64,000 nucleotides of DNA, taken from positions 37,318 to 101,317 of the forward strand of contig JAPPLU010000037.1 of assembly GCA_028874075.1 (NCBI GenBank). Reading direction: 5' to 3'. This DNA comes from Chloroflexota bacterium (GTDB taxonomy: Bacteria > Chloroflexota > Dehalococcoidia > Lucifugimonadales > UBA3495). The first letter of the stretch is position 1. Each line of letters begins with the position of its first letter. Both the position numbers and the translations under genes were made by a program. This document shows positions 1,256 through 64,000 of the stretch, one piece after another. The notes beneath the pieces were generated by a model. That model saw nothing but the letters and a program-made list of their open reading frames with translations. It did no database searches and was not told the DNA's origin.

Positions 1256-2185
1256 ATGCAGAAGGATCTGGAAACCAGGGTGAAGGAGTTCATCGCGTCG
1301 GGGGACAGTGCCCGGCTGGACCGATTCCTTTCCGAGCGGGAAAGGGATATGACCCGCAGCCGCCTTCATTCGCTGATCAGCGAAGGCTGGGTGAGCATAA
1401 ACGGGCAGCAGGCAAGGCCGGCCCAGCGTGTGAAGGGCGGCGACCGTGTTGTGATGACGATACCGCCGATCAGGGAATATGACGTCTCGCCCCAGTCCAT
1501 ACCCGTGAACCTGGTGTACCAGGACTCCGAAATTGTGGTAGTGGACAAGCCCGCCGGCCTCTCGGTTCACCCTGGTCCGGGCCATCCGGATGGGACGCTG
1601 GTGAATGCCCTGCTGGCGCGCTGTCCTGACATCCAGGGCGTTGGGGGGATCCACCGCCCGGGCATAGTGCACCGGCTGGACAAGGACACATCCGGCCTTA
1701 TGGTGGTAGCCAAGACGGAGAGGGCGCACCAGAGTCTTTCGGGTCAAATAAAAGAACGGGAAATCCGGAAGGGCTACCTCGGACTTACCGTAGGAATGCC
1801 GCCGCAAGATAAGGGTACGGTGGATGTCCCGATAGCCCGAGACCCAAGGCACCGCCAGCGCATGGCCGTTGTCCTGGGCGGCCGGGAATCTCGTACTCAC
1901 TATAGGGTGTTGGAAGAGCTGAGGGGCCACGCCCTGCTGGAACTGGACCTGGAGACGGGCCGGACCCACCAAATCCGGGTGCACCTGGCCTACCTGGGTT
2001 ACCCCCTATTTGGAGACGGGGTCTACGGCAAGCGAAGCCCCGACCTGGCCCGGCATTTTCTCCACGCGAATGCGCTGGGCTTCAGGCATCCCCGTTCGGG
2101 CAAGGATGTTTCTTTCAAGTCAGATTTGCCCACGGAATTGCAGCAGGTATTGACGGCCCTGAGGCAATGTCAGGCGGACGTTTAA
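1256..2185 (+). CDS. rluD: RluA/RluD-family 23S rRNA pseudouridine synthase
   Basis: N-terminal S4-like RLDRFLSE...SRSRLHSLI and the catalytic motif HRLDKDTSGLMVVAKT. It sits in the conserved lspA-rluD neighbourhood. Confidence 0.9.
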   Translation: MQKDLETRVKEFIASGDSARLDRFLSERERDMTRSRLHSLISEGWVSINGQQARPAQRVKGGDRVVMTIPPIREYDVSPQSIPVNLVYQDSEIVVVDKPAGLSVHPGPGHPDGTLVNALLARCPDIQGVGGIHRPGIVHRLDKDTSGLMVVAKTERAHQSLSGQIKEREIRKGYLGLTVGMPPQDKGTVDVPIARDPRHRQRMAVVLGGRESRTHYRVLEELRGHALLELDLETGRTHQIRVHLAYLGYPLFGDGVYGKRSPDLARHFLHANALGFRHPRSGKDVSFKSDLPTELQQVLTALRQCQADV

Positions 2186-2313
2186 CGCGCCGGAAAAGGG
2201 GTGCGCTTGAATTTTCGCCTAACTAGTCACTCTAAACCCGTAATATGTACCGTGCTAGAATATGCTGGATGCGCCGCCGGCGTAAGAACTACGTACCTGA
2301 GGAAGCGACCTGA

Positions 2314-4029
2314 ATGACATCCCCGGAAAGCACTTCGGAAAGCACTTCAACTGACTTCATCCGGGCCATCGTGCAAGATGACCTGGAATCCAACAAGTAT
2401 GACGGAAGGGTGGTAACCCGCTTTCCCCCCGAACCCAACGGTTACCTTCACATCGGTCACGCCAAGTCAATCTGTCTTAACTTCGGCGTGGCTTCGGAAT
2501 ATGATGGTGGCGTGTGCCACTTGCGCTTCGATGACACTAACCCGTTGCGTGAGGACATAGAGTACATTAATTCCATCCAGGAGGACGTACGCTGGCTGGG
2601 CTTCGATTGGGGGTCTCACCTTTACTATGCTTCGGACTATTTCGACGCGCTCTACAGCTTTGCCGAGCAGCTTATTCTGGACGGCCGGGCCTACGTGGAC
2701 AGCCTGTCTGCGGACGAAATACGTGATTATCGTGGTACGCTGACGGAGCCCGGGCGGGAAAGCCCTTACCGTAACCGGTCGGCGGAGGAAAACCTGGACC
2801 TGTTTCGGCGGATGAGGGACGGCGAATTTGAGGACGGCGCTCATGTACTGAGGACCAAGATAGACATGGAGTCGCCCAACCTGAACATGCGCGATCCCAC
2901 GATCTACCGGATCAGGCGTGCCACCCACCATCGTACAGGCGACAAATGGTGCATCTATCCGATGTACGACTACGCCCATGCTCTGTCCGATTCAATTGAA
3001 AACATCACCCATTCCCTATGTACCCTGGAGTTTGAGGACCACCGCCCCCTGTATGACTGGACGCTGGAAGCGCTGGACGTCTACCGTTCGCAGCAAATCG
3101 AGTTTGCCCGACTCAACCTGACCAATACGGTAATGAGTAAGCGCCGCTTGCTGCAGCTGGTGGAGGGTGGCTACGTGTCCGGTTGGGACGATCCCAGGAT
3201 GCCAACCATCAGCGGGCTGCGTCGTCGGGGCTATACTCCGGAGGCCATACGCACCTTTTGCGAGCACGTGGGCATTTCCAAACGGGACACGGTGGTGAAC
3301 ATGGCCCTGCTGGAGCACTGCATACGTGAAGACCTGAATCTGCACGCGCCCAGGGTTATGGCGGTTTTGAATCCTCTGAAAGTGGTCATCGACAATTTCC
3401 CTGAAGGCGAGGTTCTTGAGTTCGACGCTGTGAACAACCCGGAGGACCCGTCAATGGGGTCGCGCAAGGTGCCCTTTTCCCGTGAGGTCTATATTGAAAG
3501 GGATGATTTCCGCGAGGACCCTCCGTCGCGTTTCTTCCGCTTGGCCCCGGGCCGGGAGGTCCGGCTGCGATATGCCTGCTATATCACGTGCCAGGAAGTG
3601 GTGAAAGACCCAGAGACAGGCGAGGTAATAGAACTTCACTGCACCTATGATCCGGAGTCGGTAGGCGGTTCGACGCCTGACGGAAGGCGAGTACGGGGCA
3701 CCCTGCACTGGGTTTCAGCCCGCCACGCCCTGCAGGCTGAAGTGCGCCTGTACGATTACCTTTTGCGGGATGCGGACGAAGGGGATGAAGACAGCCGGGA
3801 CTTTATCTCGCTGCTAAACCCGGACTCGCTTCAGACTCTTATTGATTGCAAGGTGGAGCCGGGATTGGCAGACGCGGAGTTGGGAAGCCGGTACCAATTC
3901 GAGCGGCAGGGTTATTTTTGTGTTGACACCAGGGATTCCGGACCGGGGGCTCCGGTATTTAACCGTACCGTTTCTTTACGGGATTCCTGGGCCAGGATTG
4001 AGCAATCGCAGTCCCGCGGGGGAAGCTAA
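2314..4029 (+). CDS. glnS: glutamine--tRNA ligase
   Basis: Class I HIGH motif ([14 protein letters not shown]) and KMSKS variant (VMSKRRL). Length of about 570 aa and a C-terminal anticodon-binding beta-barrel region are typical of GlnRS. Confidence 0.92.
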
Positions 4030-4134
4030 CGGCGTCCAGAGCATTGGAAAAGGCAAGGTCGGCGATTCCGGGGCAGGATAGAATCCGTTTCCCGTTCAGA
4101 TGGTCGACAGCCCAGGCGCTCCAGGAGGATAGTT

Positions 4135-5619
4135 TTGGCCAATGAAGTCCGTGTAAGGTATGCCCCTAGTCCCACGGGAATGCCCCATATTGGCAATATA
4201 CGCACGGCCATGTTCAACTGGCTCTTTGCCCGCCACCACGGGGGCAAGTTCGTTGTCAGGATTGAAGACACGGACCAGGAGCGGCTGGTGCCCGGCGCAG
4301 TGGACGGAATCCTGGACGGCCTGGAATGGCTGGACATCGACTGGGACGAGGGTCCCAGGGTGGGCGGCGATTTCGGCTCCTACTTCCAGTCTGAGCGCCT
4401 GCCCCTTTACCACGCAGAGGCAGAACGGCTGATTGCCCAGGGCGACGCCTACCGCTGCTACTGTACGCGGGAACGCCTGGTCGAACTTCGGTCCCGGCAG
4501 GAGCGGGACAAGGTGGCCCTGGGTTACGACGGGCGCTGCAAGCACCTGGGCGGCGGGGAACGTCGCATCCTGGAAGACGAGGGCGCGCCCTACGTGGTGC
4601 GATTCGCCATGCCGGACAGCGGGATAACTCACCTTCACGACCTCATACGCGACGACGTGGAGTGGCAAAACGAACTGGTGGACGACTTTGTCCTCCTGAA
4701 GTCCGACGGCTTTCCCACCTATCACCTGGCGGTGGTGACCGACGACCATTTCATGGAGATTAGTCACGTGCTAAGGGCCGAGGAGTGGCTGTCCAGCGCT
4801 CCCCGCCACCTGCAACTGTACCGGGCGCTGGGCTACGAACCACCCGAACACGGCCACCTGCCCATGATCCTGGGTCCCGACCGGGCGAAACTGTCCAAGC
4901 GCCACGGCGCCACGTCCATTTTGGAATACAGGGACGATGGCTTTTTGCCCGAAGCTCTGCGCAATTTCATGGTGCTTCTGGGCTGGTCGCTGGACGACAA
5001 GACCGAAGTTATGCCCATAGAGACCATTACCGAGAACTTTACCCTAGACCGGGTGGGCAAGCCGGCCGCCATTTTCGACCGGGAGAAACTTTCCTGGATG
5101 AACGGCGTCTACATTCGCGAAATGACGGCTGAGGCTCTGGCAGATGCCATGCTCCCCTTCCTGGAGCAGGGACTGCCGTCCAACCTGCTGCCGGTGGACC
5201 GAGAATACCTGCTCAGCATTGTGCCCCTGGTTCAGGAAAGAATAAAGGTGCTCACTGAAGCGCCGGAGATGGTTTCCTACTTTTTGGAAGAGCAACCCGT
5301 ATACGACTCCGCCAACCTGGTGCAGCGCGGTATGACAGAGGAAGAGACGGTTCGGGCCCTGGAGAGATCAATCCTGGCCCTTGGCGACTGCGATTTCAGC
5401 ACCGAAGCGCTTGAAGGACTGCTGCGGTCCCTGGGGGAGGAACTGGAACTTACGCCACGCCGGTTCTTTGGTACATTGCGCTGGGCGGCCACGGGGCGCA
5501 ACGTATCGCCGCCGCTCTTTGAGACGCTGGAGGTACTGGGAAGGGAGCGCGTAGGGCCCAGACTGCAGTGGGCGCTGGACAGTCTTTCAGGTAAAGAACG
5601 TATCGGCAGCGGAGTTTAG
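4135..5619 (+). CDS. gltX: glutamate--tRNA ligase
   Basis: RYAPSPTGMPHIGNIRTA (HIGH) and KLSKRHG (KMSKS); 494 aa, bacterial GluRS architecture. Confidence 0.92.
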   Translation: MANEVRVRYAPSPTGMPHIGNIRTAMFNWLFARHHGGKFVVRIEDTDQERLVPGAVDGILDGLEWLDIDWDEGPRVGGDFGSYFQSERLPLYHAEAERLIAQGDAYRCYCTRERLVELRSRQERDKVALGYDGRCKHLGGGERRILEDEGAPYVVRFAMPDSGITHLHDLIRDDVEWQNELVDDFVLLKSDGFPTYHLAVVTDDHFMEISHVLRAEEWLSSAPRHLQLYRALGYEPPEHGHLPMILGPDRAKLSKRHGATSILEYRDDGFLPEALRNFMVLLGWSLDDKTEVMPIETITENFTLDRVGKPAAIFDREKLSWMNGVYIREMTAEALADAMLPFLEQGLPSNLLPVDREYLLSIVPLVQERIKVLTEAPEMVSYFLEEQPVYDSANLVQRGMTEEETVRALERSILALGDCDFSTEALEGLLRSLGEELELTPRRFFGTLRWAATGRNVSPPLFETLEVLGRERVGPRLQWALDSLSGKERIGSGV

Positions 5620-5709
5620 CCGGTCGGACACCACACCTTTTCCACTTGGCGGCAGGATGGGCCCCTCCCAGTTGTATAACCACCAGGCGGAGTAAGTAAG
5701 CAGGGATAG

Positions 5710-5756
5710 AAAAAAGTTGCCGTGCCAACCTAGAGGCTGGCGCGGCAATTTTGCTT
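5710..5756. terminator. bidirectional intrinsic terminator between gltX (+) and the LigB-like gene (-)
   Basis: 10-bp stem ttgccgtgcc (5717-5726) / ggcgcggcaa (5739-5748). An A-run lies upstream (5710-5715) and a T-run downstream (5749-5752). Confidence 0.55.
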
Positions 5757-5779
5757 CATCTGGTTCGATTGGTGGCCGT

Positions 5780-6751
5780 TCAGTTCCAGACTGCCGCCAC
5801 CCGGTAGGCCAACTGGGTGTGGGACTCGCGGACATCTACGATTTCCGCGGGCGTGTCGCCCAGTATGCCCAGGGCAATAATCCAGTTGAGAATTTCGTGA
5901 TCCCCCGACTCTTGTAACTCTTCAGGTGTAAGCTCGGCCAGTTTGTGGCCCTGGCCAGTGCGCAACCATTCCAGATTCCGGCGGTCGGTCTCGATATCGA
6001 TGGCACAACACCGGAACTTGTGGGCCAGGAAGCTGTGCGACCAGCTGGATGATGCTACCACAGCCACCCTTTCGTCCCTGGTATCCAGGAACCTGCGGAT
6101 GCCCTGGCCCAGCTCGTAGCACCGCTTTGGTGTCGGACGCGGCGGATAGTCCGGCCCCGCTTCTTCACCATAGCAGTTGACGAACAGCGGCAGCAGTGGG
6201 AACTTTCCGTCCGGGTCAAGGAAGACCAGCGGGTTAATGATCGCGTGGGCCAGGCCCCATTCCCAACCCTTGAGTTCGCTGGACGATGACATATCGAAGC
6301 CGTCGCGAATCAGGAAGTTGCGCATATCCCGGGAGAAGTCCTTGGGACATTGGAAAGTGAACTTCGTTTCCGGCGCCGCGTTCCAAAGGTTGGTTCGGGC
6401 AGCGGCGCGTTGGAAGGGATAGCCGTCCACCTCTGCGCCGGTGTAAAGGCAGAAGGGAGGCAGGTTGTCCTGCCTGAAGTTCTCCGCCTGATCGTCGCCA
6501 ATGATCATCAGAACATCCGGCTCCCATTCGTGAAGACGGTCGCGCAAAATGTGAAACGCTGCTACCACCTTCTTCTGGTCGTCAATGTCCTGGCTAAGCC
6601 CGTTGTCCTGCCCCAATTCCTCCAGCAATTGGGCCGGCGCTTCGTAGTCGGGTATTCGGGCGAAGACTCGTTCCCTTCCCCTGGCCCACACTTCGGGAGG
6701 AGTCAGAATGATGGGCCCGTGAGAGCAGCCCAGCCCCAGCAATTCAGCCAT
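5780..6751 (-). CDS. class III extradiol ring-cleavage dioxygenase family (LigB-like)
   Basis: N-terminal LGCSHGP, IIGDDQAENF, a later SSSWSH and a C-terminal GDHEILNW resemble the LigB/PCA-4,5-dioxygenase-type catalytic subunit pattern. Substrate unknown. Confidence 0.55.
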   Translation of the reverse strand: MAELLGLGCSHGPIILTPPEVWARGRERVFARIPDYEAPAQLLEELGQDNGLSQDIDDQKKVVAAFHILRDRLHEWEPDVLMIIGDDQAENFRQDNLPPFCLYTGAEVDGYPFQRAAARTNLWNAAPETKFTFQCPKDFSRDMRNFLIRDGFDMSSSSELKGWEWGLAHAIINPLVFLDPDGKFPLLPLFVNCYGEEAGPDYPPRPTPKRCYELGQGIRRFLDTRDERVAVVASSSWSHSFLAHKFRCCAIDIETDRRNLEWLRTGQGHKLAELTPEELQESGDHEILNWIIALGILGDTPAEIVDVRESHTQLAYRVAAVWN

Positions 6752-6961
6752 GTTGTCCTCCGGTCAGACGTAACAATGCAATACCTTGCTTCTCCGCAAT
6801 TGTAGGTACGCCGGAAAGGAAGTGTCAATTTTGCATTATGTTTGTGGGGTTATAGCAGAAACCCTCCGAGAAGGAACCTGTAGGGTGTTGAATACGTAGC
6901 ATGTCTTTGATGATTGTCGCCGTCGGCCCATTGCGGGCCGGCATTTCCAAAGCCTTTAGCC

Positions 6962-7780
6962 TTAGTCTTCAATCAATAGGCCGCAGTGTGGGCAATAGCG
7001 CGCTTCCTGGTTCCTCTTTTGAATTTCGTCCAAGAATCCTGAGCCAAGGATGCCTGCCGGCAACGCAAACATGCCGATGCCCATCACTGCAATGATGCCG
7101 GCCATGACCTTGCCCAGGGGCGTTACCGGCGATACGTCGCCGTATCCGACGGTGGTCAGGGTGATGATGCTCCACCACATGGCCTCGGGAATGCTGGCGA
7201 AGGCATCGGGTTGAGCACGGTGTTCCGCATAGAACATCATCGACGAAGCCAGCACAAGCATTACGGCCAGGACTATCACGACCGTTGCAAGCTCCATCGC
7301 CTTGCTCTGTAGCACCTTGCCAAGGGTACGGATGCCCTCAAAATAGCGACCCAGCCGGGCGGCCCATGCCAGCAAACGCAACGCTCTCAGACTTCTCAGA
7401 TCCTCCAGCCCAAGGAAGGGGAGGAAGAAGGGCAGCAAGGCCAGCAGGTCTATTATCAGCAAAGGAGTGAAAGCGAAACGCAGGCGGCCAAAGAATGGGT
7501 GGGAGTAATGAGGCTCGGAGGTGCATGACCAGATGCGAAGGAGGTACTCCACCGTAAAGATTATCATTGAGGCAATTTCCAGGATCGGGAAGAACCAGGG
7601 AGCCGCGTTATAGACGGAGTCGACAGTCTCCAGAATTTGGGCGGCCGTATTGACAATGATCAGAGTAATGATGAAATAGTCGATCGCCCGGTCCAGGCGA
7701 TCACCCGACTGGCCGACCTCAAGCAGTTCGTGGACTTTGTTTCGGATTCTTTCCAGGGAATTGATAAAGTCACCCCCCAA
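6962..7780 (-). CDS. voltage-gated-type potassium channel (6-TM ion transport family)
   Basis: K+ selectivity filter TLTTVGYGDVSP and an S4-like Arg repeat LRSLRALRLLAWAARLGRY. The only in-frame start is TTG at 7780 with a weak RBS, so the start is uncertain. Confidence 0.85.
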   Translation of the reverse strand: MGGDFINSLERIRNKVHELLEVGQSGDRLDRAIDYFIITLIIVNTAAQILETVDSVYNAAPWFFPILEIASMIIFTVEYLLRIWSCTSEPHYSHPFFGRLRFAFTPLLIIDLLALLPFFLPFLGLEDLRSLRALRLLAWAARLGRYFEGIRTLGKVLQSKAMELATVVIVLAVMLVLASSMMFYAEHRAQPDAFASIPEAMWWSIITLTTVGYGDVSPVTPLGKVMAGIIAVMGIGMFALPAGILGSGFLDEIQKRNQEARYCPHCGLLIED

Positions 7781-27646: not shown

Positions 27647-28165
27647 ATGGCCCTGGTAATCGGGGGTATCCTGGCATTGCTGGGCATTGCGGTAGCGGTT
27701 TATCCCTTCGTGCGGCACCGGCTTTGGGGCGAACCCGTGGATCGGGATTCAGGGAATGCTGAGGCTCAGTCTCCGGCTGGCACGGGCCTGGCGGGGGGCG
27801 AACTGGCGGACATCTACCACGCTATTGGCACCCTGCGCCTGGAACGGGAGCTGGGCAACATTCCTGAAGGGCTTTACCGCGAGCAATTGAATGGCTACCG
27901 CTTGAGGGCAGCCCAGGCACTGCGCGACCGCGAACTGGCCCCGAATGAAGATGAAGACTGGGCCCTTGAGGAGGAAATAAGGGTGGCCCGCTCCGGGTTG
28001 TATGGAAGGGGTGAAAGAGGCATTTCCTGTTCCAACTGCGGCAGACCGATAATGGCTGAAGTGGCCGAGTGTCCCGAGTGCGGAGCGACAATCTCCCGCC
28101 CTGGCGCCGGCGCAACTCCTTCATCTGAAGCAGGGTCAGAAAGGTCAATAGATGACGTTTCATAG
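27647..28165 (+). CDS. membrane-anchored zinc-ribbon protein, unknown function
   Basis: N-terminal TM segment (MALVIGGILALLGIAVAVYPFV), a helical segment and a C-terminal CSNCG...CPECG ribbon. It overlaps the next ORF by 14 nt. Confidence 0.5.
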   Translation: MALVIGGILALLGIAVAVYPFVRHRLWGEPVDRDSGNAEAQSPAGTGLAGGELADIYHAIGTLRLERELGNIPEGLYREQLNGYRLRAAQALRDRELAPNEDEDWALEEEIRVARSGLYGRGERGISCSNCGRPIMAEVAECPECGATISRPGAGATPSSEAGSERSIDDVS

Positions 28166-29396
28166 TTTTCTGCATCCTGCCTGGGCCCTACCCCTGGCAT
28201 TTCCCCTGGTACTTTGTCTCTTGCTCATTACCCTGGCTCTTCACTCGGGGACTACCGTTAGCGCACAAGGTTCCGAAACCGTAAAAGTGGAAGGTGTGGC
28301 CATCAACGGTACCGAAGGAAGCCCGATACCCGCGTCCTTTCCGGTGTCCCTGCACACTATCGACCCAGTGGCGGGCCGGGTAGCTACCTACAACGCCACC
28401 ACTGACTCACAAGGGCGGTTCGCTTTTGAAGAGGTCTCTACGGTAGCCGGCGGCAGCTACGTCCTGGTAATGGACTACGAAGGAATGCGGTACAGCGAAC
28501 TGCTGGAGTCCGATGACCTGTCCGATCCGGTTGAATTTGCGGTCTTTGACATAACGGGAGATATCGGCGTAGTAAGAGTCCAACGGCAGGCGATGATAAT
28601 TGCCGACGTTGACGAGCAGAACCGGGAGATTCAGGCGCTGGAAGTTTTGAGCCTCCAGAATGGATCCGACCGGACGCTGCTGCCCGAGTTGACCAACATA
28701 ACCAATCCGGCAGACATCAACTTTCTGAGGTTTTCCCTGCCCGCGGGAGCCACCGAGCTTTCGGTGCAATCGAGCCTGCCTGGCGGCGACACCATACCTA
28801 TGGGCACGGGTTTCGCGGTTACCGCGCCGGTCCCACCCGGCGATCACGAAGTTACCTACACCTACCGGTTTCCCTACGAGGGTGACGCTGCGACTTTCAA
28901 CCAGCGGCTGATTCAGGGCGCGGAGGAATACCAGGTCCTGGCGCCGGCATCGTTGTCCCAGATGCAGGTTTCTCCCCTGGAACCCAGGCCCCGGGTCGAT
29001 GTAGGCGGCGTATCCTACCTGGTGTGGGAAGCGGAACAGGTTCCTCCCGGGCAGGGCGTCGTTTTGCACTTTTCCCGCTTGCCGCAGCCAACCTTGACCC
29101 AACGGGTAGTTACGTATGTCACCAGCTTGGAACTATGGTTGACGACCATTCCGGTGGTTCTGGCCCTCGCCCTAGTTGCGCTGTTGCTGTGGGCCTGGTT
29201 CCGCGCGCCACGATCTGGCCGCCGGGCGCTAGTCGTGGATACAGTCGGTCAATCCCGCCGCCAGTCCCTGGTGCAGGCAGTAGCGGTGCTGGACGAGAGG
29301 TACGAGGGGGGACGGGTGGCCGATGAAGAATACGGTCCCCGCCGCCAGGAATTGTTGGAGCAGCTACGTCAACTTACGCCGCCGGCGGGAGGCTGA
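28152..29396 (+). CDS. secreted, C-terminally anchored protein with a carboxypeptidase-regulatory-like beta domain, unknown function
   Basis: Signal-like N-terminus, VEGVAINGTEG...TDSQGRFAFEEV (CarboxypepD_reg-like), a TM segment at LWLTTIPVVLALALVALLLWAWF and a short cytosolic helical tail. Confidence 0.5.
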   Translation: MTFHSFLHPAWALPLAFPLVLCLLLITLALHSGTTVSAQGSETVKVEGVAINGTEGSPIPASFPVSLHTIDPVAGRVATYNATTDSQGRFAFEEVSTVAGGSYVLVMDYEGMRYSELLESDDLSDPVEFAVFDITGDIGVVRVQRQAMIIADVDEQNREIQALEVLSLQNGSDRTLLPELTNITNPADINFLRFSLPAGATELSVQSSLPGGDTIPMGTGFAVTAPVPPGDHEVTYTYRFPYEGDAATFNQRLIQGAEEYQVLAPASLSQMQVSPLEPRPRVDVGGVSYLVWEAEQVPPGQGVVLHFSRLPQPTLTQRVVTYVTSLELWLTTIPVVLALALVALLLWAWFRAPRSGRRALVVDTVGQSRRQSLVQAVAVLDERYEGGRVADEEYGPRRQELLEQLRQLTPPAGG

Positions 29397-32040: not shown

Positions 32041-32359
32041 AAGTCCTCCTTGCAGCCGTCCGGAAAGGGGTGGCGGAATTTGCCACGTTGTAGTGCAGTT
32101 GGAAGGTACCATAGAGTACAAGGGGACGCAATTATTGCCTCCCTGGAAGCAGATTTGCGATTCTGGCGGCTGACTGTACCGTAGGGCCGAGGTTGGGTGG
32201 CTTTTTGGGGTTCTTGAGACACAAGGATACCTTTTTCATCCAGTGAGACCCTATTCGTGCCCGCCCGGCTTAAGCCCAAATCGGGAAGTGGGCCTATTGA
32301 CGGATGACGCTCGAGGTAGTAATCTTGGCCTCAGTCCACTGGGAACTTTTACAATTAAA

Positions 32360-32545
32360 AAGCACCTGAAGGTGTCCGCCGCAGGCGGATGAAAAGGGAA
32401 GCCGGTGAAACTCCGGCGTGGTCGCGCCACTGTAACTGGCAAGAACCTGCCCAATCCTGAATGGAAGCCACTGTCCGCCTCAGGCGGATGGGAAGGCGGG
32501 CAAGTTCGTTAATAGCCAGGAGCCAGGAGACCTGCCTTCAGCTGA
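32360..32545 (+). promoter_or_regulatory. cobalamin (B12) riboswitch aptamer
   Basis: AAGGGAAGCCGGTGAAACTCCGGCG..GCGCCACTGTAA...GCCACTG..GGGAAGGCGG...AGCCAGGAGACCTGCC (B12 box). P1 pairs CTGAAGG (32366-72) with CCTTCAG (32535-41). Confidence 0.85.
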
Positions 32546-32592
32546 GTACCAGGTACGCTTCGCGGTAGGGTGTATGGTGTTTTGAAGAATTC

Positions 32593-49186: not shown

Positions 49187-49300
49187 TGGCTGCTGTTGAG
49201 TGGCCGGGGCGATTCAGTAGATACGCTACTGGTTGATGGGTAGGGTCGCTTATGGAGTAGGACTTCTTGTAAGCCAGACAAATGACAGGAGCAGTGGATT

Positions 49301-50053
49301 ATGGGAAAACTGGACGATAAGGTAGCCCTGATAACCGGCTCCGGCCGCAACATTGGCCGGGCCACAGCCCTCAAGTTTGCCGAGGAGGGAGCAGACATCA
49401 TAGTCAACGCCCGCAGCAACCGGGAGGAGGCTGAAGCCGTTGCCGAGGAAGTGCGTGCGCTGGGCCGCCGGGCGCTTCCCGTCCTGGCTGACGTCTCCAA
49501 CAAGGAGCAGGTTGACAGCATGGTGAAAATGGCCCTGGAGGAGTTTGGCCGCATAGATATCCTGCTGAACAATGCGGCAATTCGTCCTCACAAGCCCTTC
49601 CTGGACCTGACCCTGGAAGACTGGGAATACGTGCGGGGCGTGGTACTGGACGGCGCCTTCTACTGCACCCACGCGGTAATGCCTTCCATGGTGGAAAACA
49701 AATATGGACGCGTCCTCTTTTTCACGGGAGATGGAGCCTGGGCCGGCGGCGCCCAGCGGGGCCACGTGTCGGCTGCCAAAATGGGGCTGGTGGGCTTCTC
49801 GCGAAGCCTTGCCACAGAGTTTGCCCCCTACAATGTGCGGGTGAACGTGGTGTCCCCCGGCAGCATTGATACCAGCCGGGCTAACCCGGAGTGGTACCCG
49901 GATGCCCGTCCTCCCAACGCTGCCGGCATACCCCTGGGGCGCCAGGGCAAGACCGACGAAATCGCGGCTGCCTGCCTGTTCCTGGTCAGCGACGATGGGG
50001 GGTTCATAACCGGCCAAACGCTGCACGTGAATGGTGGGGCGGCGTTCTTCTAG
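49301..50053 (+). CDS. SDR-family oxidoreductase
   Basis: KVALITGSGRNIGRATA, NNAA and a YxxxK region. It is a paralogue of 31273..32040. Confidence 0.85.
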   Translation: MGKLDDKVALITGSGRNIGRATALKFAEEGADIIVNARSNREEAEAVAEEVRALGRRALPVLADVSNKEQVDSMVKMALEEFGRIDILLNNAAIRPHKPFLDLTLEDWEYVRGVVLDGAFYCTHAVMPSMVENKYGRVLFFTGDGAWAGGAQRGHVSAAKMGLVGFSRSLATEFAPYNVRVNVVSPGSIDTSRANPEWYPDARPPNAAGIPLGRQGKTDEIAAACLFLVSDDGGFITGQTLHVNGGAAFF

Positions 50054-50157
50054 GGCATCGCGACCTGCCGGCAGGGCATAAGGAAGGGGGCGAGTCAAGC
50101 ACTCACCCCCTTCTCCTCTCTGCAGTTCCATTTTTGGCCGCAGCCGACCCCAATTGG

Positions 50158-54920: not shown

Positions 54921-56624
54921 TTACTGGTTGAGTGTTATGCCGTGCCTTTCCAGGAGTTCTTGGACTCGGCGGTCCGCCAGCCTCCTGAGCTTGTCCGCAT
55001 TGGCGCGCTCCTCGTCCATCCCCCGGTAGACGTCGCTTTCGTAAGGAGCCCAGGTATTTGAGAGGCTGCGCAGGGCCGCGCCCTCTCGTTCCACCGCCTC
55101 GGAGAGCAAGTCGGAACTGGGCCGCAGGTAAGAGACCTGTGAGAGGCCACGCACCCGACTGGCAATTTCACTGAAACGCTGGTTGTAAAGCTGCAGCGCT
55201 GACGAGGCGCCGGCACGGTCGCAATCTCCTTCATTGCGGGTCCAGCCGTCGAACTCGCTGTGGAAGGCGTCCCAGTCGTCCATCAGTTCACCGAAGGCTG
55301 CAACAAAATCGGCCAACGCTTCGCGGTCATTTTCGCTGAAGCCCTCCACCAGGTCTTCAAGGTCCCTGTCTGCCTTTCGGCGAATCGCCCTGGTGCTGTC
55401 CAACGTTTCGTCAAAGGTATCAAAGTGTTCCGAGTAGTCGGGCAATGTCGCTCCGTTATCCTCCGTATCCTCGGAGGTTTGGGCCGAACCCTGTTGGCCT
55501 GAAGACCCCGTAGTGTTCCTGGCTAAGAGTATGGGAGTGGATCCCGGTGTCCCGCTTTGAGCGTTGGGAGGTACTGCCCCGGCGTTCTCCCCCGATGCCA
55601 GGCTGCCCTGGTGGGAGTCTTGCGCCGAACCCTGGGGAGTGCCATTCCCGGGGCTGTTGGTGGGCTCTTCGCTCTCTTCCGAACCCATCATCGCGCCGTT
55701 TGGGCCGCCGTTTTCGGTAGGCTCACCGCCATTATCAGCCTCTTCCCCGTTCTCCTCCATACTGGTTGCTTCCTCTCGGGCGGCCCGGCGGATAGTATCC
55801 AGCAGGTCGCCCAAGGCTTCCGCTTCGGACTCTGCAGCTTCGATCAGCGGGTCCTGTACCGGATCGGTTACTTTGTCAGAGGGGATGTCTTCCAGGGCTT
55901 CTACGACGGCTTCATGCTCGTCTACCAGGTCCCGGAGCCTGCTCACAATTTCACTGGACTCCAACTCCAGGTGTTCATCTTCCAGGGTTCCATAGGAGTC
56001 GTAGAACTCGTCCCACGCTGCTTCCACCGGCGCCAGCTCCTTGGCGAAATCCTTGGCAAGCTGACGGTCATCCGGATCGTCCATTTCTTCCAGTTTATCA
56101 ACGGCTACCTGGGTGGCTCGGAGCATATCTGCCGCGGCGGCCCTGGTAGTCTGGGCGTTTTCCAGCAGCATGGTATTGGAAGGGTTCCAGTTGTCCCGCA
56201 GGCCCCTCAGTGAAGCCTCTTCGCTGGCTGCGGCGGCAATGACGTCGTCGGGCAATTCCCGCGCGATTCCCTTACCTGGAAGGTTGCGAGCCTGGCTAGT
56301 AATTTTTCCGAAGTCGCTGGCAAAAACACGGAGGGCAGTCTCCGCCGCAGCACGGTCACAGGCATTGATACCTGAACGCCAGCGATCAAAGTCTACGTGG
56401 AAAGAGTCCCAGTCCTCACTTATAGCCTGCTGGGATTCAGCATGGTCCTGAATCAGTTCCGACGAAACAGGGATTGGAGTAGGTGACACATTGCCGGTCG
56501 GAGAAGAGTCCGTACTCAGGCTTGGTCCGGATTCCGAGTCAGTGGCCTGGTTACTGCACGCCAACGCCAGCACCGCCAGGAGTCCAAGAGAGAAAAAAAA
56601 CAATGGACGAAGGATTATCTTCAT
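54921..56624 (-). CDS. acidic lipoprotein with an internally duplicated domain, unknown function
   Basis: Signal peptide MKIILRPLFFFSLGLLAVLALAC (lipobox-like). Two homologous modules start DWDSFHVDFDRW...CDRAAAETAL and DWDAFHSEFDGW..CDRAGASSAL, separated by a low-complexity S/G/E/N linker. Confidence 0.6.
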   Translation of the reverse strand: MKIILRPLFFFSLGLLAVLALACSNQATDSESGPSLSTDSSPTGNVSPTPIPVSSELIQDHAESQQAISEDWDSFHVDFDRWRSGINACDRAAAETALRVFASDFGKITSQARNLPGKGIARELPDDVIAAAASEEASLRGLRDNWNPSNTMLLENAQTTRAAAADMLRATQVAVDKLEEMDDPDDRQLAKDFAKELAPVEAAWDEFYDSYGTLEDEHLELESSEIVSRLRDLVDEHEAVVEALEDIPSDKVTDPVQDPLIEAAESEAEALGDLLDTIRRAAREEATSMEENGEEADNGGEPTENGGPNGAMMGSEESEEPTNSPGNGTPQGSAQDSHQGSLASGENAGAVPPNAQSGTPGSTPILLARNTTGSSGQQGSAQTSEDTEDNGATLPDYSEHFDTFDETLDSTRAIRRKADRDLEDLVEGFSENDREALADFVAAFGELMDDWDAFHSEFDGWTRNEGDCDRAGASSALQLYNQRFSEIASRVRGLSQVSYLRPSSDLLSEAVEREGAALRSLSNTWAPYESDVYRGMDEERANADKLRRLADRRVQELLERHGITLNQ

Positions 56625-59316: not shown

Positions 59317-60090
59317 TTAATCGCTGCCGGCCCGTAGATCGAATTTGCGAAAGGCCAGGACCGACAGACCGACCAGTGCAGCCGTATACCCCGCGGCGAT
59401 GGGAACAAACCAGGCACTGTCCAAAAGGGCGCTCTCCCCCTGCAAGCCCTGGGCGATGCCCCACATTGTCCAGGAAGTAATGGAGCTTATGGGCCAGCCC
59501 AGCAACTCTCCAAGTATGCCGGCCAACGGGTAGGCAATAGCTTCAAGGAAGATGGCCGTGATACCCATACCCACGGTGAATGCAAACGACTGGCGCCAGT
59601 AGCTCAGGACCATGGCGAAAGCCCCGTAGAGAAGTGTGTTGAGGAAGGAAGCCCCAATTGAAGCCAGGTCTGTTCCAATTCCATCCCAACCGGCCGAAAG
59701 GGCGACTGTCAAGACCAGCGCCAGCGCCAGCACAACAAGGTGGAACGTGAGCATCAGGGTTATAGTCAACAGAGCTTTTGAAGTAAGGACTGTGTCCCTG
59801 GTAGCTCCCTTTGCAGTTAAAGTCCGGCAGTATCCGCCCTGCAAATCACTAGCGTGAACGAAGGCCACCGTTATAACCGCCAGAACGGGAGAGACGACCC
59901 AAAGGACCCCGGACGCAAGCTGGAGGAAGCCTGAGGTCAAGGGGAGCGGTATCACTTCCAAGAATTGCATAACACCGAAGGAGAGGGGTAGAACCGCCAG
60001 CAACATCGCGAGGCCATAGAGAACCAGGAAGCTGGGTTTCCGAGCCTGGCGAAAATATTCCCACCGCACTAACGAGATAAGCTGACTCAT
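59317..60090 (-). CDS. ABC-2-type transporter permease
   Basis: 257 aa, six predicted hydrophobic segments. Its start overlaps the ATPase stop (ATGA). Confidence 0.7.
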   Translation of the reverse strand: MSQLISLVRWEYFRQARKPSFLVLYGLAMLLAVLPLSFGVMQFLEVIPLPLTSGFLQLASGVLWVVSPVLAVITVAFVHASDLQGGYCRTLTAKGATRDTVLTSKALLTITLMLTFHLVVLALALVLTVALSAGWDGIGTDLASIGASFLNTLLYGAFAMVLSYWRQSFAFTVGMGITAIFLEAIAYPLAGILGELLGWPISSITSWTMWGIAQGLQGESALLDSAWFVPIAAGYTAALVGLSVLAFRKFDLRAGSD

Positions 60091-61097: not shown

Positions 61098-61287
61098 CCG
61101 TCCTGGTGGAGTGTCGCCGGCTGCCCGTATTGGGTTGGCGTCCGAGCGGCCTGGCCTGGGCCCTTGTGTGCCAGGGGTCCGAGAATCCAGGGGGGTGAAG
61201 AGGTGGAGTCTCTGCGACCCCTGACATTATATACTACGCACAATAAATAAGTACGGATGTATTATAGCAAGTGCAATTTGCAGTTTG

Positions 61288-61791
61288 CTACCTATTAGGC
61301 GCTGGGTAGTCTTCCAGGTTGAAGGGCTGCCCGTTCAGGTTGATGGTGTCCTCAAACAGCTCAGGCCGGCCGAAAGACTGGCGGGCAAAGCAGCCGTTAC
61401 GGGCATTACGCATCACGCCGGCCACCCGTTCCGGAGAATCACCGGACTCCACGTCGTAGTGAATGGCTATCTTGTCTGCCTTGGCCTGGATAGTCTGCCG
61501 GAGCACCGAGCCTTCGGCTGAGACCGTGTAACCGATATTGGCCTTGATCTGGCCCATGTCCACTTTCATCATTTGAGCGTACCGCTCAAGCTGGGTCATT
61601 TCTCAAAACAGGATGGCTACCGCAAAGTAGGTCATGGGTGAGGGCGCCGTGTTATCGCCCATGGGGGGACCCTCGTCGCACATGATGGTGAATCCCCGGG
61701 CCTCCGCCTGTTTCTTCATGCCGTCCAGGGTCATGGCATCGCCCTGGATGGTGAATGACCTGGAAAAGCGGTCATTGTCCGGTGTGGTCAT
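61288..61791 (-). CDS. OsmC/Ohr-family peroxiredoxin-like protein with in-frame TGA (candidate selenocysteine at codon 63)
   Basis: ATG 61791 with an AGGAG RBS. The product reads ...CDEGPPMGDNTAPSPMTYFAVAILF-[TGA 61605..61603]-EMTQLERYAQMM...NARNGCFARQSF. Listed ORFs 61603..62049 and 61288..61599 are in the same frame. The TGA sits where the first conserved Cys of the OsmC family lies. Confidence 0.65.
61573..61589 (-). promoter_or_regulatory. SECIS-like hairpin downstream of the OsmC-like TGA
   Basis: Minus strand: UGA, 13 nt, then UUGAGCG-GUA-CGCUCAA (7 perfect bp, G-U-A loop). Confidence 0.5.
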
Positions 61792-62021
61792 GGCGTTCTC
61801 CTTTCCGGTTGAATTGGGGGGAAGTATAGCACGGGGTGGGCGCATTGTTGTGGTAGTACGATCATCCTTTGGCATATAGCCGAGGAAGAGGGCAGCATTG
61901 CCTGCTTTAGCCCCTGAGTCAGGCGACAGTCGTAAATTTGGGACCTCTATTGCTGTACAATGTGGGCGATTGCATTCTGCCAGCCATTCCGCAGGACGAG
62001 ACGAACCCACAGGAGGACGAT

Positions 62022-62408
62022 ATGCCCATAATTGACCATTCCCAGGCACCCGAGGTTCCGTGGCGGCCCGGTTACCGCAAGTGGGATGTTGCTGGCCACG
62101 AGCAAGGGGTTACGAGCACATTCAGCATAAATACCGCCGAACCAGGGGCCGGCGCTCCCCTTCACACCCACACCATTGATGAGCTGATTGTGATAGTGGA
62201 GGGTACCCTGGAGGTAAGCATGGATGGTGAAACGCAAACCGTAGGGCCCAACCACACCGTGGTCATTCCGCCTGGAGCCGAGCACGGCTTCCGGGTTACC
62301 GGCAGCGATACAGCGCACCTGTTGGTCTTTTTCCCAGCGCTGAATCCCTATTCCGAGGAACATACCCACTACCTGGAGGGGGCGCGGCCTGCTTCCGTAG
62401 GTGACTGA
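62022..62408 (+). CDS. cupin-domain protein
   Basis: GAGAPLHTHTIDELIVIVEGTLEV...PPGAEHGF (cupin motifs 1 and 2). ATG 62022 is preceded by AGGAGG. Confidence 0.8.
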   Translation: MPIIDHSQAPEVPWRPGYRKWDVAGHEQGVTSTFSINTAEPGAGAPLHTHTIDELIVIVEGTLEVSMDGETQTVGPNHTVVIPPGAEHGFRVTGSDTAHLLVFFPALNPYSEEHTHYLEGARPASVGD

Positions 62409-62489
62409 AGGAGAGATTATCCGGACTTCGCTTTGGGGTAGCTCGCCTGGGGCTTTCATTTCAATTGTGTTCGATGGGAGGAGCAGCGT

Positions 62490-63050
62490 ATGACCTGGAT
62501 CAGACAGGAAGACGTGGGAATGCCTGGCATCATCAGTTCAATGTCCATAAACCCGAAAATGATGGAAGCGGTGCGAAACCTGAACCAGGCCGTCAGTTTC
62601 GGCGCATCGGAGTTGACGCGGGTCCAGGAAGAGTCCATAGCCGTAGCCGTTTCGGTGATGAACCGTTGCCGCTATTGAGCATCCGCCCACGGGGGGTTCC
62701 TCCGTCAACACTCCGACGACCCGGAATATGCCAGTCACATACTGCACGACTACACCACCGCCGACCTGGACCCACAGACCCGAGGAATGCTGGATTTTGC
62801 CGTTAAACTGACCAGGCAACCGACGGAAATGAGGGAATCAGACGTTCTTCAACTGCGGGAACTGGGCCTGACTGACGAGCAGATACTGTCGGTCGTGGCG
62901 ATTACCTGCCTCTTCAACTTTATGAACCGGCTGGCCGACGGCCTGGGTGTGGACATTGAAGCCGACCGGCAACAGGCAATGGACCGCTGGGTTACCGGCC
63001 CGGCCCGCGACCAGGACTGGTTGTGGGCGTTCAAAGAGCAGAGGGTTTAG
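62490..63050 (+). CDS. AhpD/carboxymuconolactone-decarboxylase-family peroxidase-related protein with in-frame TGA (candidate selenocysteine at codon 63, C-R-Y-U motif)
   Basis: ATG 62490 with a GGGAGGAG RBS. The product reads ...IAVAVSVMNRCRY-[TGA 62676..62678]-ASAHGGFLRQHSDDPE...LDFAVKLTRQP...FNFMNRLADGLGV. Listed ORFs 62490..62678 and 62787..63050 are in the same frame with no other stop between them. The family motif is N.C.YC...H. Confidence 0.65.
62689..62705 (+). promoter_or_regulatory. SECIS-like hairpin downstream of the AhpD-like TGA
   Basis: UGA, 10 nt, then ACGGGGG-GUU-CCUCCGU (7 bp including one G.U, G-U-U loop). Confidence 0.5.
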
Positions 63051-63168
63051 CTACCTTAGGCAAAAGGCCTTTAACGTCAACAGGCCTTTATTTGCAGCCT
63101 CGAGAATTCACTCAGAATGAACGTGGCCGCAAGTCAATGAGACTGGGTCAAAAGCCCCGATAAACTTG

Positions 63169-63198
63169 GGGCAGGCACTAAGCCTGCCCTTTTCTCTT
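63169..63198 (+). terminator. intrinsic terminator after the AhpD-like gene
   Basis: 8-bp stem gggcaggc / gcctgccc with loop actaa, followed by TTTTCTCTT. Confidence 0.65.
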
Positions 63199-63226
63199 AT
63201 GGCGATGGGTTATACACAACTGCAAC

Positions 63227-64000
63227 TCAGTCGGGTCGGTCAGTATGGATGCCTTCCCTGCTCCAGTAGTCCCACAGGTTGGCGGCGTTCATCTTCATAA
63301 CCCGGGGTGAAGTGCCGTCCTGCCCTACGTCCATGGGATAGCGGTCGGTCAGGTCAGTCAGGTTTTCCGCGGCTTCTTCGCGGGTCATTCCCCTTTCAAC
63401 CGCCTGGCGTGCGTACTCCTTCCACTCCAGGATGTACTCTCCCTGCTCGTCAAGATAGCTCTTGTCACAGCGGCGGCCGTGGCCGGGGATGAAAATTTCT
63501 TCGTCAAGACGGCGAAGGGACTCCAGCGCCCGCAGCCACTGGTCGGGATTGGCTTCCTGGATATAAGTCTGCACCTTGTGGAAGATGTTATCGCTGGTGA
63601 AAACTACGCCCTCTTCCTTGATGAGAATAGCCGCCTGGTAAAGGGTATGACCGGGCATGTGAATCATCTGGAAGCTGTGGTCTCCCACGTGCAGGGTCAT
63701 GCCGTTGCGGAAGGTGATGACCGGAGCGTTGGGCGTGTAATTCTCCAGCAAGGCAGGCTCCTCCGGCCCCATGCCGGCTACCCGGGCTACATGCTCTTCC
63801 AGGTTGGTATCCAGGATTCGCTGCCTGACTCCCTCGTGGGCGATGACCGGCACGTCAAAGTAGGCATTTCCGGTCCAGTGGTCGCCGTGAGGTTCGGTGT
63901 TGATGATGTAGAGCAACTCACCGTGCCTGGCGATTTCATCCTTCAGTTTAAGGGCATCGCTGGGCTTCTGGGGACTATCGATCATTACGACGCCTTCCGA
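63227..64000 (-). CDS. MBL-fold metallo-hydrolase, N-terminus beyond the right edge
   Basis: INTEPHGDHWTGN (HxHxDH region with the first His as Glu), HMPGHT and IPGHG. The frame stays open to nt 64000 (..SEGVVMIDSP). Confidence 0.75.
   Translation of the reverse strand, partial: SEGVVMIDSPQKPSDALKLKDEIARHGELLYIINTEPHGDHWTGNAYFDVPVIAHEGVRQRILDTNLEEHVARVAGMGPEEPALLENYTPNAPVITFRNGMTLHVGDHSFQMIHMPGHTLYQAAILIKEEGVVFTSDNIFHKVQTYIQEANPDQWLRALESLRRLDEEIFIPGHGRRCDKSYLDEQGEYILEWKEYARQAVERGMTREEAAENLTDLTDRYPMDVGQDGTSPRVMKMNAANLWDYWSREGIHTDRPD

Follow-up and report, generated by a model that had tools for sequence, protein, structure and literature searches.

The locus described here raises the question of whether three neighbouring genes, two of which are interrupted by an in-frame TGA codon, work together as a unit of peroxide defence or have been inherited side by side. 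It lies at positions 61288-63050 of a 64-kb stretch of DNA (hereafter the window, meaning the whole stretch that was analysed), which comes from the chromosome of a member of the Dehalococcoidia (Chloroflexota), and it comprises an OsmC-like gene on the minus strand followed by a cupin gene and an AhpD-like gene on the plus strand. In an initial annotation of the window, the three genes had been delimited and both TGA codons read as selenocysteine (Sec, U); the coordinates, strands and TGA codons were all borne out by the present analysis. The account that we favour, and consider probable, is that two true selenoprotein genes, independent of each other and each from a known family, lie here on either side of an unrelated cupin gene, and that the gene order is a matter of sub-clade synteny.

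The OsmC-like gene (61288..61791, minus strand) runs through 167 codons in one frame and has a single internal TGA, at codon 63 (61603..61605, minus strand). Its product belongs to the OsmC-related (seleno)protein family NF041052 (140 bits against a cutoff of 95) and to the OsmC domain family PF02566 (47.2 bits, cutoff 27.5). In alignment with PDB entry 3CJE, U63 takes the place of the first Cys (C-V-M-T), so that U63-E-M-T66 represents a UxxT motif, and the resolving Cys134, which is invariant among 23 aligned sequences, takes the place of the second. A protein search returned 96 clusters, essentially all of them fragments split exactly at the TGA, being either 92-104 aa pieces that start just past it or N-terminal pieces that end there. 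A scan of one genome per species gave 60 loci, all from Dehalococcoidia or Chloroflexota and including SAR202 and sponge-associated metagenome-assembled genomes (MAGs). All 60 orthologues (57-99% protein identity; 99% for locus L001 of the complete genome OZ219949.1) have TGA at the Sec position, and no Cys form was found among homologues of at least 57% identity. An OsmC-like selenoprotein with a UxxT motif has been reported from the Sargasso Sea in three sequences (Zhang et al. 2005, PMC1088965), and the window gene resembles this family in its hidden Markov model (HMM) score, in UxxT at the first Cys, in the second Cys and in a Sec insertion sequence (SECIS) element with G first in the loop. 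There is no essential difference; the window gene represents a Dehalococcoidia sub-clade in which the TGA persists throughout 60 species-level genomes and in all 96 database clusters.

The AhpD-like gene (62490..63050, plus strand; 186 codons) likewise has one internal TGA, at codon 63 (62676..62678, plus strand), within the motif C60-R-Y-U63-A-S-A-H67. The protein scores 129.7 bits against the peroxidase-related enzyme family TIGR01926 (cutoff 81.8) and 46.9 bits against the CMD/AhpD family PF02627 (cutoff 23), and only 15.9 bits against TIGR00777, the model of true AhpD, the AhpC reductase, for which the cutoff is 191.95; it is thus AhpD-like and not AhpD proper. U63 aligns with the second Cys of the CxxC motif in 3C1L, 2PFX and 2PRR. 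The TGA of each gene hence falls on a catalytic Cys position of Cys-containing homologues with solved structures, as the initial annotation had supposed for the catalytic Cys.

All 19 AhpD-like orthologues that adjoin an OsmC-like gene have TGA at the Sec position. A metagenome sample of the AhpD-like family at large contained 55 loci with a stop codon in frame at this position (54 of them TGA) and 28 with Cys. The remaining stop is a TAA at the Sec63-aligned position of locus L081 (AhpD-like match 21-572), which may reflect a pseudogene or a local misalignment. The nearest full-length homologues of the window protein (47-65% identity) have Trp, Gly or Asn at the site and not Cys; in these proteins (P0097, P0107, P0141, P0158, P0197 and P0201) Cys60 and His67 are retained, and homologues with Cys at the site are no more than 49% identical. 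AhpD-like selenoproteins with a CxxU motif were described in the same Sargasso Sea study, in 27 sequences (PMC1088965). The window gene is like that family (TIGR01926, COG2128) in its C-x-x-U-x-x-x-H motif, its HMM score, the alternation of Sec and Cys and a SECIS element 10 nt past the UGA, and differs in that the nearest non-Sec homologues of its product have Gly, Asn or Trp in place of Cys. As a side observation, the open reading frame (ORF) of protein P0169 joins C-terminal sequence of one AhpD(U) to N-terminal sequence of another and stops at the TGA of the latter, which implies that AhpD(U) genes stand in tandem in at least one genome.

Both UGA codons are followed by a compact hairpin. 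In the OsmC-like gene (hairpin 61573..61589, minus strand) the RNA folds as UGA, 13 nt and UUGAGCG-GUA-CGCUCAA, with 20 nt from UGA to loop, and in the AhpD-like gene (62689..62705, plus strand) as UGA, 10 nt and ACGGGGG-GUU-CCUCCGU, with 17 nt from UGA to loop; the shared architecture of a 7-bp stem and a G-U-N loop that had been read off the sequence initially was recovered on refolding. At both hairpins the folding energy of the enclosing 61-96 nt has a z-score that does not stand out, so thermodynamics is by itself no proof. A pattern scan of both strands of the 64 kb for TGA, 8-16 nt and a perfect 7-bp stem with a GUN loop found exactly two matches, namely these two sites, against 0.77 +/- 0.96 in shuffled sequence; the match count alone is therefore unremarkable, and its weight comes from the in-frame positions at conserved Cys residues.

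Further evidence is provided by the constraint on the helices. Normalised synonymous entropy is 0.25 inside the OsmC hairpin and 0.73 elsewhere in the gene (Mann-Whitney p = 0.003), and 0.17 inside the AhpD hairpin as against 0.62 elsewhere in that gene (p = 0.00016); all 61/61 sequences, for instance, use CGG for Arg70 of the OsmC-like gene. Covariation of the hairpins, a check that the initial annotation had suggested, was uninformative for both within the set of close orthologues because the helices are nearly invariant there, and it became informative once distant members were added. For the OsmC hairpin, compensatory changes were then seen in 4 of the 7 pairs, 94.8% of the cells were paired as compared with 6-47% in slid controls, and none of 500 shuffles reached the score. 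For the AhpD hairpin, compared over 71 distinct sequences, both partners of the pair have changed in 26 cells, 2 of the 7 pairs are compensatory, 93.8% of the cells are paired and the observed covariation score was again reached by 0/500 shuffles. The spacers of 13 nt and 10 nt, together with the first G of the loop, are constant over 22 OsmC and 74 AhpD homologous sites. It was also observed that six OsmC orthologues (L009, L035, L042, L045, L054 and L059) carry linked synonymous changes, Leu68 CTT to CTG and Ala72 GCT to GCC, always together with Gln73 CAG, which shift the SECIS helix into another register that has a bulged A and similar stability (-9.8 versus -8.9 kcal/mol).

The bacterial SECIS model of Zhang and Gladyshev reportedly requires a stem-loop shortly past the UGA with a small apical loop that bears a conserved G, and both hairpins of the window agree with it in distance, apical G and helix constraint. 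An Rfam search of 61200-63300 at E <= 10 gave no match to a SECIS family and chance-level matches only; the Rfam models may not cover this type of SECIS.

That the two reading frames continue past the UGA is directly supported by codon usage. Downstream of the TGA, 47/53 conserved codons of the OsmC-like gene and 80/93 of the AhpD-like gene keep the amino acid while varying synonymously, and the codons upstream of both TGAs behave in the same manner. As amino acids are kept while codons vary, the parts past the TGA are translated and under purifying selection. TGA also terminates 14 of the 45 long ORFs in the window, hence there is no global reassignment of the codon. On the evidence of sequence evolution, both are genuine selenoprotein genes and not pseudogenes.

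Both proteins are new members of selenoprotein families that have been described since 2005. The two families were counted again in the Global Ocean Sampling data (PMC2398784), OsmC-like UxxT and AhpD-like CxxU selenoproteins are likewise on record in PMC13188914, and both appear in reviews of 2022 and 2026, the latter of which gives TIGR01926 and PF02566 as models. The genes are nevertheless mis-annotated at present in public data. In a public contig that is 98-100% identical to the locus (L064:9339-11101; ENA ERZ23495064, NGUY21-1_SAMN17524326 scaffold_337), the gene calls render the OsmC-like gene as fragments of 94 and 62 aa and the AhpD-like gene as fragments of 62 and 73 aa, nameless and devoid of Pfam matches.

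SelB-dependent decoding of UGA is an established mechanism. In the present case each hairpin would recruit SelB-GTP-Sec-tRNA(Sec) so that the UGA is read as selenocysteine, a step that we infer, as the window does not encode the machinery. By analogy with OsmC/Ohr proteins, OsmC(U) would act as a hydroperoxide reductase in which Sec63 replaces the peroxidatic Cys and attacks the peroxide, the oxidised Sec63 would be resolved by Cys134 as a selenenylsulfide, and an external thiol donor would then reduce the enzyme. AhpD(U), as a C-x-x-U-x-x-x-H oxidoreductase, would be expected to cycle through a Cys60-Sec63 selenenylsulfide with His67 nearby.

The account that competes best with two independent genes is that OsmC(U) and AhpD(U) constitute a dedicated two-selenoprotein hydroperoxide reductase system, the adjacency of which has been selected and in which the cupin is optional. 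We hold this to be possible and rather doubtful. Equally tentative is the catalytic proposal that goes with it, by which the CxxU protein would recycle the selenenylsulfide of OsmC(U) much as AhpD recycles AhpC in mycobacteria. Mycobacterial AhpC and AhpD are a peroxiredoxin-reductase pair, and they serve as a model for such a partnership because there, too, an AhpD-fold protein of CxxC type is encoded beside a thiol peroxidase. The window differs from that pair in that the peroxidase fold is OsmC/Ohr and not AhpC, both partners carry Sec, and the AhpD-like protein belongs to TIGR01926 and not to true AhpD.

What speaks for a partnership is the distribution of the pair. An OsmC-AhpD adjacency occurs in 19/60 Dehalococcoidia genomes, 4 of them lacking the cupin, and three contigs (L105, L117 and L143) carry an AhpD(U) gene with an OsmC-like gene downstream on the same strand, with TGA at the same catalytic position. 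The AhpD subgroup of these contigs is only 43-45% identical to the window protein, and the AhpD of the distant pair is a TIGR01926 member at 147 bits. In L117 the two genes are separated by a gap of 184 nt and L143 is arranged alike, while in L105 a DUF302 gene stands between them; the OsmC proteins of L105 and L117 share only 29% identity, yet both are NF041052 members (171 and 151 bits). The sequences nearly identical to L143 bear the names Candidatus Binatia or Deltaproteobacteria, and the lineage is probably Binatia, another phylum than Chloroflexota. The pair thus occurs in two arrangements within the distant lineage, and the adjacency of NF041052(U) and TIGR01926(U) genes in at least three arrangements overall. 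By a rough estimate of our own, which assumes that ~3000 genes include a few copies of AhpD(U) and one or two of OsmC(U) and that ~40 independent contexts were sampled, about 0.2 chance adjacencies would be expected for this family pair against the 3 arrangements seen.

On the other side, the two genes mostly live apart. An HMM built from diverse AhpD-like sequences detected no AhpD/CMD gene within 6 kb of the other 41/60 OsmC(U) loci. Three long contigs (L061-63) have AhpD(U) genes of 63-67% identity that lack such a neighbour, OsmC is missing from about 45 AhpD(U) loci that were informative, and the same holds for L146, L149 and L118, which belong to the AhpD subgroup of L117 and offer ample flank. 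In L143, moreover, the pair is part of a dense cluster (1900-6996) of at least four selenoprotein genes in about 5 kb, comprising two AhpD(U), OsmC(U) and a PrdB-like gene, so the adjacency there may be generic selenoprotein clustering. The genes in question are an AhpD-like gene with a C-R-F-U motif (TGA inside 1900-2571), the second AhpD(U) gene (TGA at 5133), OsmC(U) (TGA at 5725) and the PrdB-like gene at 6070-6993 with a U-P-Q-C (UxxC) motif; beside them lie additional CMD-like ORFs and a gene for an Fe-S protein that resembles epoxyqueuosine reductase. Unrelated selenoprotein genes do cluster according to the 2026 review, and with some 46 selenoprotein genes per genome, if that number applies here, we calculate that about one neighbouring pair would be expected by chance.

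Pairs of redox selenoprotein genes have precedents in the neighbouring Prx/SelW and Prx-like/AhpD-like genes of the Global Ocean Sampling data (PMC2398784) and in the SAO and Tso operons, described as clustered selenoprotein genes (PMC13188914). As in the window, two redox selenoprotein genes lie side by side in these cases; the OsmC-like/AhpD-like pair is not among them, and the window genes differ in being divergent, with a non-selenoprotein gene between. Taken together, the adjacency may reflect a redox partnership or a general clustering of selenoprotein genes; a functional link between the two selenoproteins is plausible, and the recurrence of the pair should be taken as a lead and not as a demonstration. 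The more specific scenario of a previously undescribed couple, in which AhpD(U) reduces OsmC(U) and which was assembled or retained independently in Dehalococcoidia and the Binatia-like lineage, with the Dehalococcoidia version gaining the cupin, appears to us unlikely.

The initial annotation had gone further and proposed that OsmC(U), cupin and AhpD(U) form a conserved functional module, not known to it as described, in which the cupin may be a partner enzyme or sensor. This we consider very improbable. The cupin gene (62022..62408, plus strand) is an intact ORF encoding a small metal-binding monocupin of 128 aa, which matches Cupin_2 (PF07883; 57.7 bits, cutoff 27.2; 9.4e-16), shows generic PDB similarity only, and has the metal-binding motif HxHxxxE...H readable in its translation as H47-T-H49-x3-E53 with H87. 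The full trio, with OsmC divergent from cupin and AhpD, occurs in 15 of the 60 species-level loci, all from close relatives, in which OsmC identity is 84% or higher; the flanking ABC-ATPase and metallo-beta-lactamase genes are kept in most of them. OsmC and AhpD are found without the cupin in 4/60 loci with both outer flanks kept, so the cupin is dispensable there, and OsmC and cupin without AhpD in 5/60, with neither outer flank kept. The remaining 36/60 OsmC loci, two of which are cut by contig ends, have neither cupin nor AhpD and heterogeneous neighbours, and crude ORF clustering over the 60 loci revealed no universal neighbour of OsmC(U), the largest cluster being a spurious antisense ORF of OsmC itself.

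Beyond this sub-clade the cupin keeps other company. Orthologues at 65-70% identity sit in a conserved cupin-TrmI(GCD14)-HD context at three distinct loci with no OsmC or AhpD nearby, a context that is unrelated to peroxide defence, and the distant OsmC(U)-AhpD(U) pairs (L105, L117 and L143) have no cupin in their vicinity. In the three cupin-TrmI-HD loci (L066, L069 and L070, cupin at 4001-4387 in each), the genes after the cupin always encode a tRNA methyltransferase of the TrmI/GCD14 type and an HD-domain protein, with Methyltransf_28 convergent downstream. No cupin-AhpD fusions were found either; the AhpD homologues of 288-308 aa were considered as such and rejected, their C-terminal tails being of low complexity and not cupins. 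Since the trio is limited to close relatives and the cupin has another context, the three-gene layout is best read as the inherited synteny of one sub-clade. The comparison of neighbourhoods proposed at the outset has cut both ways: the trio was not found beyond close relatives, and the OsmC(U)-AhpD(U) pair was found to recur without the cupin.

The shared intergenic region does lend the module some support. The 230 nt between the OsmC-like and cupin genes (61792-62021) had been called a divergent promoter region; the length was confirmed and two conserved -10-like boxes were found, while a sigma-70 consensus scan of the region gave no match. The boxes are TATACT upstream of the OsmC-like gene (61823..61828, minus strand) and TACAAT upstream of the cupin gene (61956..61961, plus strand), and a promoter role for them is suggested by their conservation. 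In an alignment of 21 intergenic sequences (the window and 20 further loci), the T-A-n-A-n-T positions of the former and the TACAAT of the latter are each kept in at least 90%, with TAGAAT in one case on the cupin side. The spacer itself ranges from 115 to 447 nt and is unconserved outside these boxes, and a shared operator was sought in the alignment and not found, the two -10 boxes alone being kept. With the trio retained in 15 species-level genomes and the divergent OsmC-cupin pair in 5 more that have other outer flanks, a module has something to be said for it; the loss of the cupin from genomes that retain both selenoprotein genes and both flanks, its absence from the distant pairs, its second context, the variable spacer and the lack of fusions leave that proposal largely refuted on comparative grounds. 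The cupin looks like a passenger.

That one or both genes are nonsense-mutated pseudogenes, a concern raised along with the first reading of the locus, or that the ribosome inserts Trp, Gly or Cys at the TGA or simply reads through it, is scarcely credible: the split public gene calls (94+62 and 62+73 aa), the Gly, Asn or Trp at the site in the closest full-length AhpD homologues and the lack of Sec machinery within the window could be cited in its favour, but every species-level genome retains the TGA (60/60 and 19/19) and the codons past it are under strong purifying selection, a structured element with covariation stands at a fixed spacing, this genome otherwise uses TGA as a normal stop and both families are curated as selenoprotein families.

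We therefore return to the account of two independent selenoprotein genes of known families around an unrelated cupin, against which some points do weigh. Sec incorporation and enzyme activity are deduced from sequence in both subfamilies. The 64-kb window contains no tRNA gene, and no SelA, SelB or SelD domains were detected in its 30 large ORFs, in keeping with the initial remark that the machinery is not encoded here; Dehalococcoidia MAGs with 46-49 selenoproteins are on record (BSepDB, PMC13326102). In 5 genomes OsmC and cupin remain a divergent pair between other outer flanks, so the cupin is not obviously random either, and the recurrence of the OsmC(U)-AhpD(U) pair across phyla would make that pairing more than passive synteny.

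Few other features accompany the locus. Behind the AhpD-like gene, where a terminator had been predicted, an intrinsic-terminator-like hairpin with a T-run was found by terminator scan at 63168..63200 on the plus strand (hairpin 63168-63190; 9 pairs, 7 of them G-C; tail TTTCTCTTAT), and a weak terminator-like hairpin lies in the gap between the cupin and AhpD-like genes (62430..62453, plus strand), detected by consensus scan only. Scoring of TGA-bridged ORFs for coding potential yielded no convincing further selenoprotein gene in the window; the other candidates were dropped as they overlap longer ORFs on the opposite strand.

Elsewhere in the window, a cobalamin riboswitch (Rfam RF00174, 113.7 bits) at 32353-32553 on the plus strand precedes a run of cobalamin biosynthesis or salvage genes at about 33.4-41.8 kb that encodes CobB/CobQ-like amidotransferases, a CobT-type phosphoribosyltransferase, CobD and an aminotransferase. 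Two adjoining paralogues of class-I Glu/Gln-type aminoacyl-tRNA synthetases lie at 2314-5619 (plus strand), the one at 2314-4029 with GlnRS-type C-terminal domains and the one at 4135-5619 with a GluRS-type anticodon domain. Four ORFs have no Pfam match at E <= 1e-5, namely 54921-56624 (minus strand, 567 aa), 28152-29396 (plus, 414 aa), 59317-60090 (minus, 257 aa) and 49250-50131 (minus, 293 aa). The 567-aa ORF appears to share an operon with genes for an S49 peptidase, an auxiliary protein of an ABC transporter and the ABC ATPase that adjoins the OsmC-like gene.

Overall, the corrected annotation adds two selenoproteins to a Dehalococcoidia selenoproteome, and the two minimal bacterial SECIS elements, which emerge unusually clearly from the comparison, could help programs to find selenoprotein genes more precisely in Chloroflexota. 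The sole new lead is the recurrence of OsmC(U) beside AhpD(U) across phyla, which, if the two were a redox couple, would name the reductant of this OsmC subfamily.

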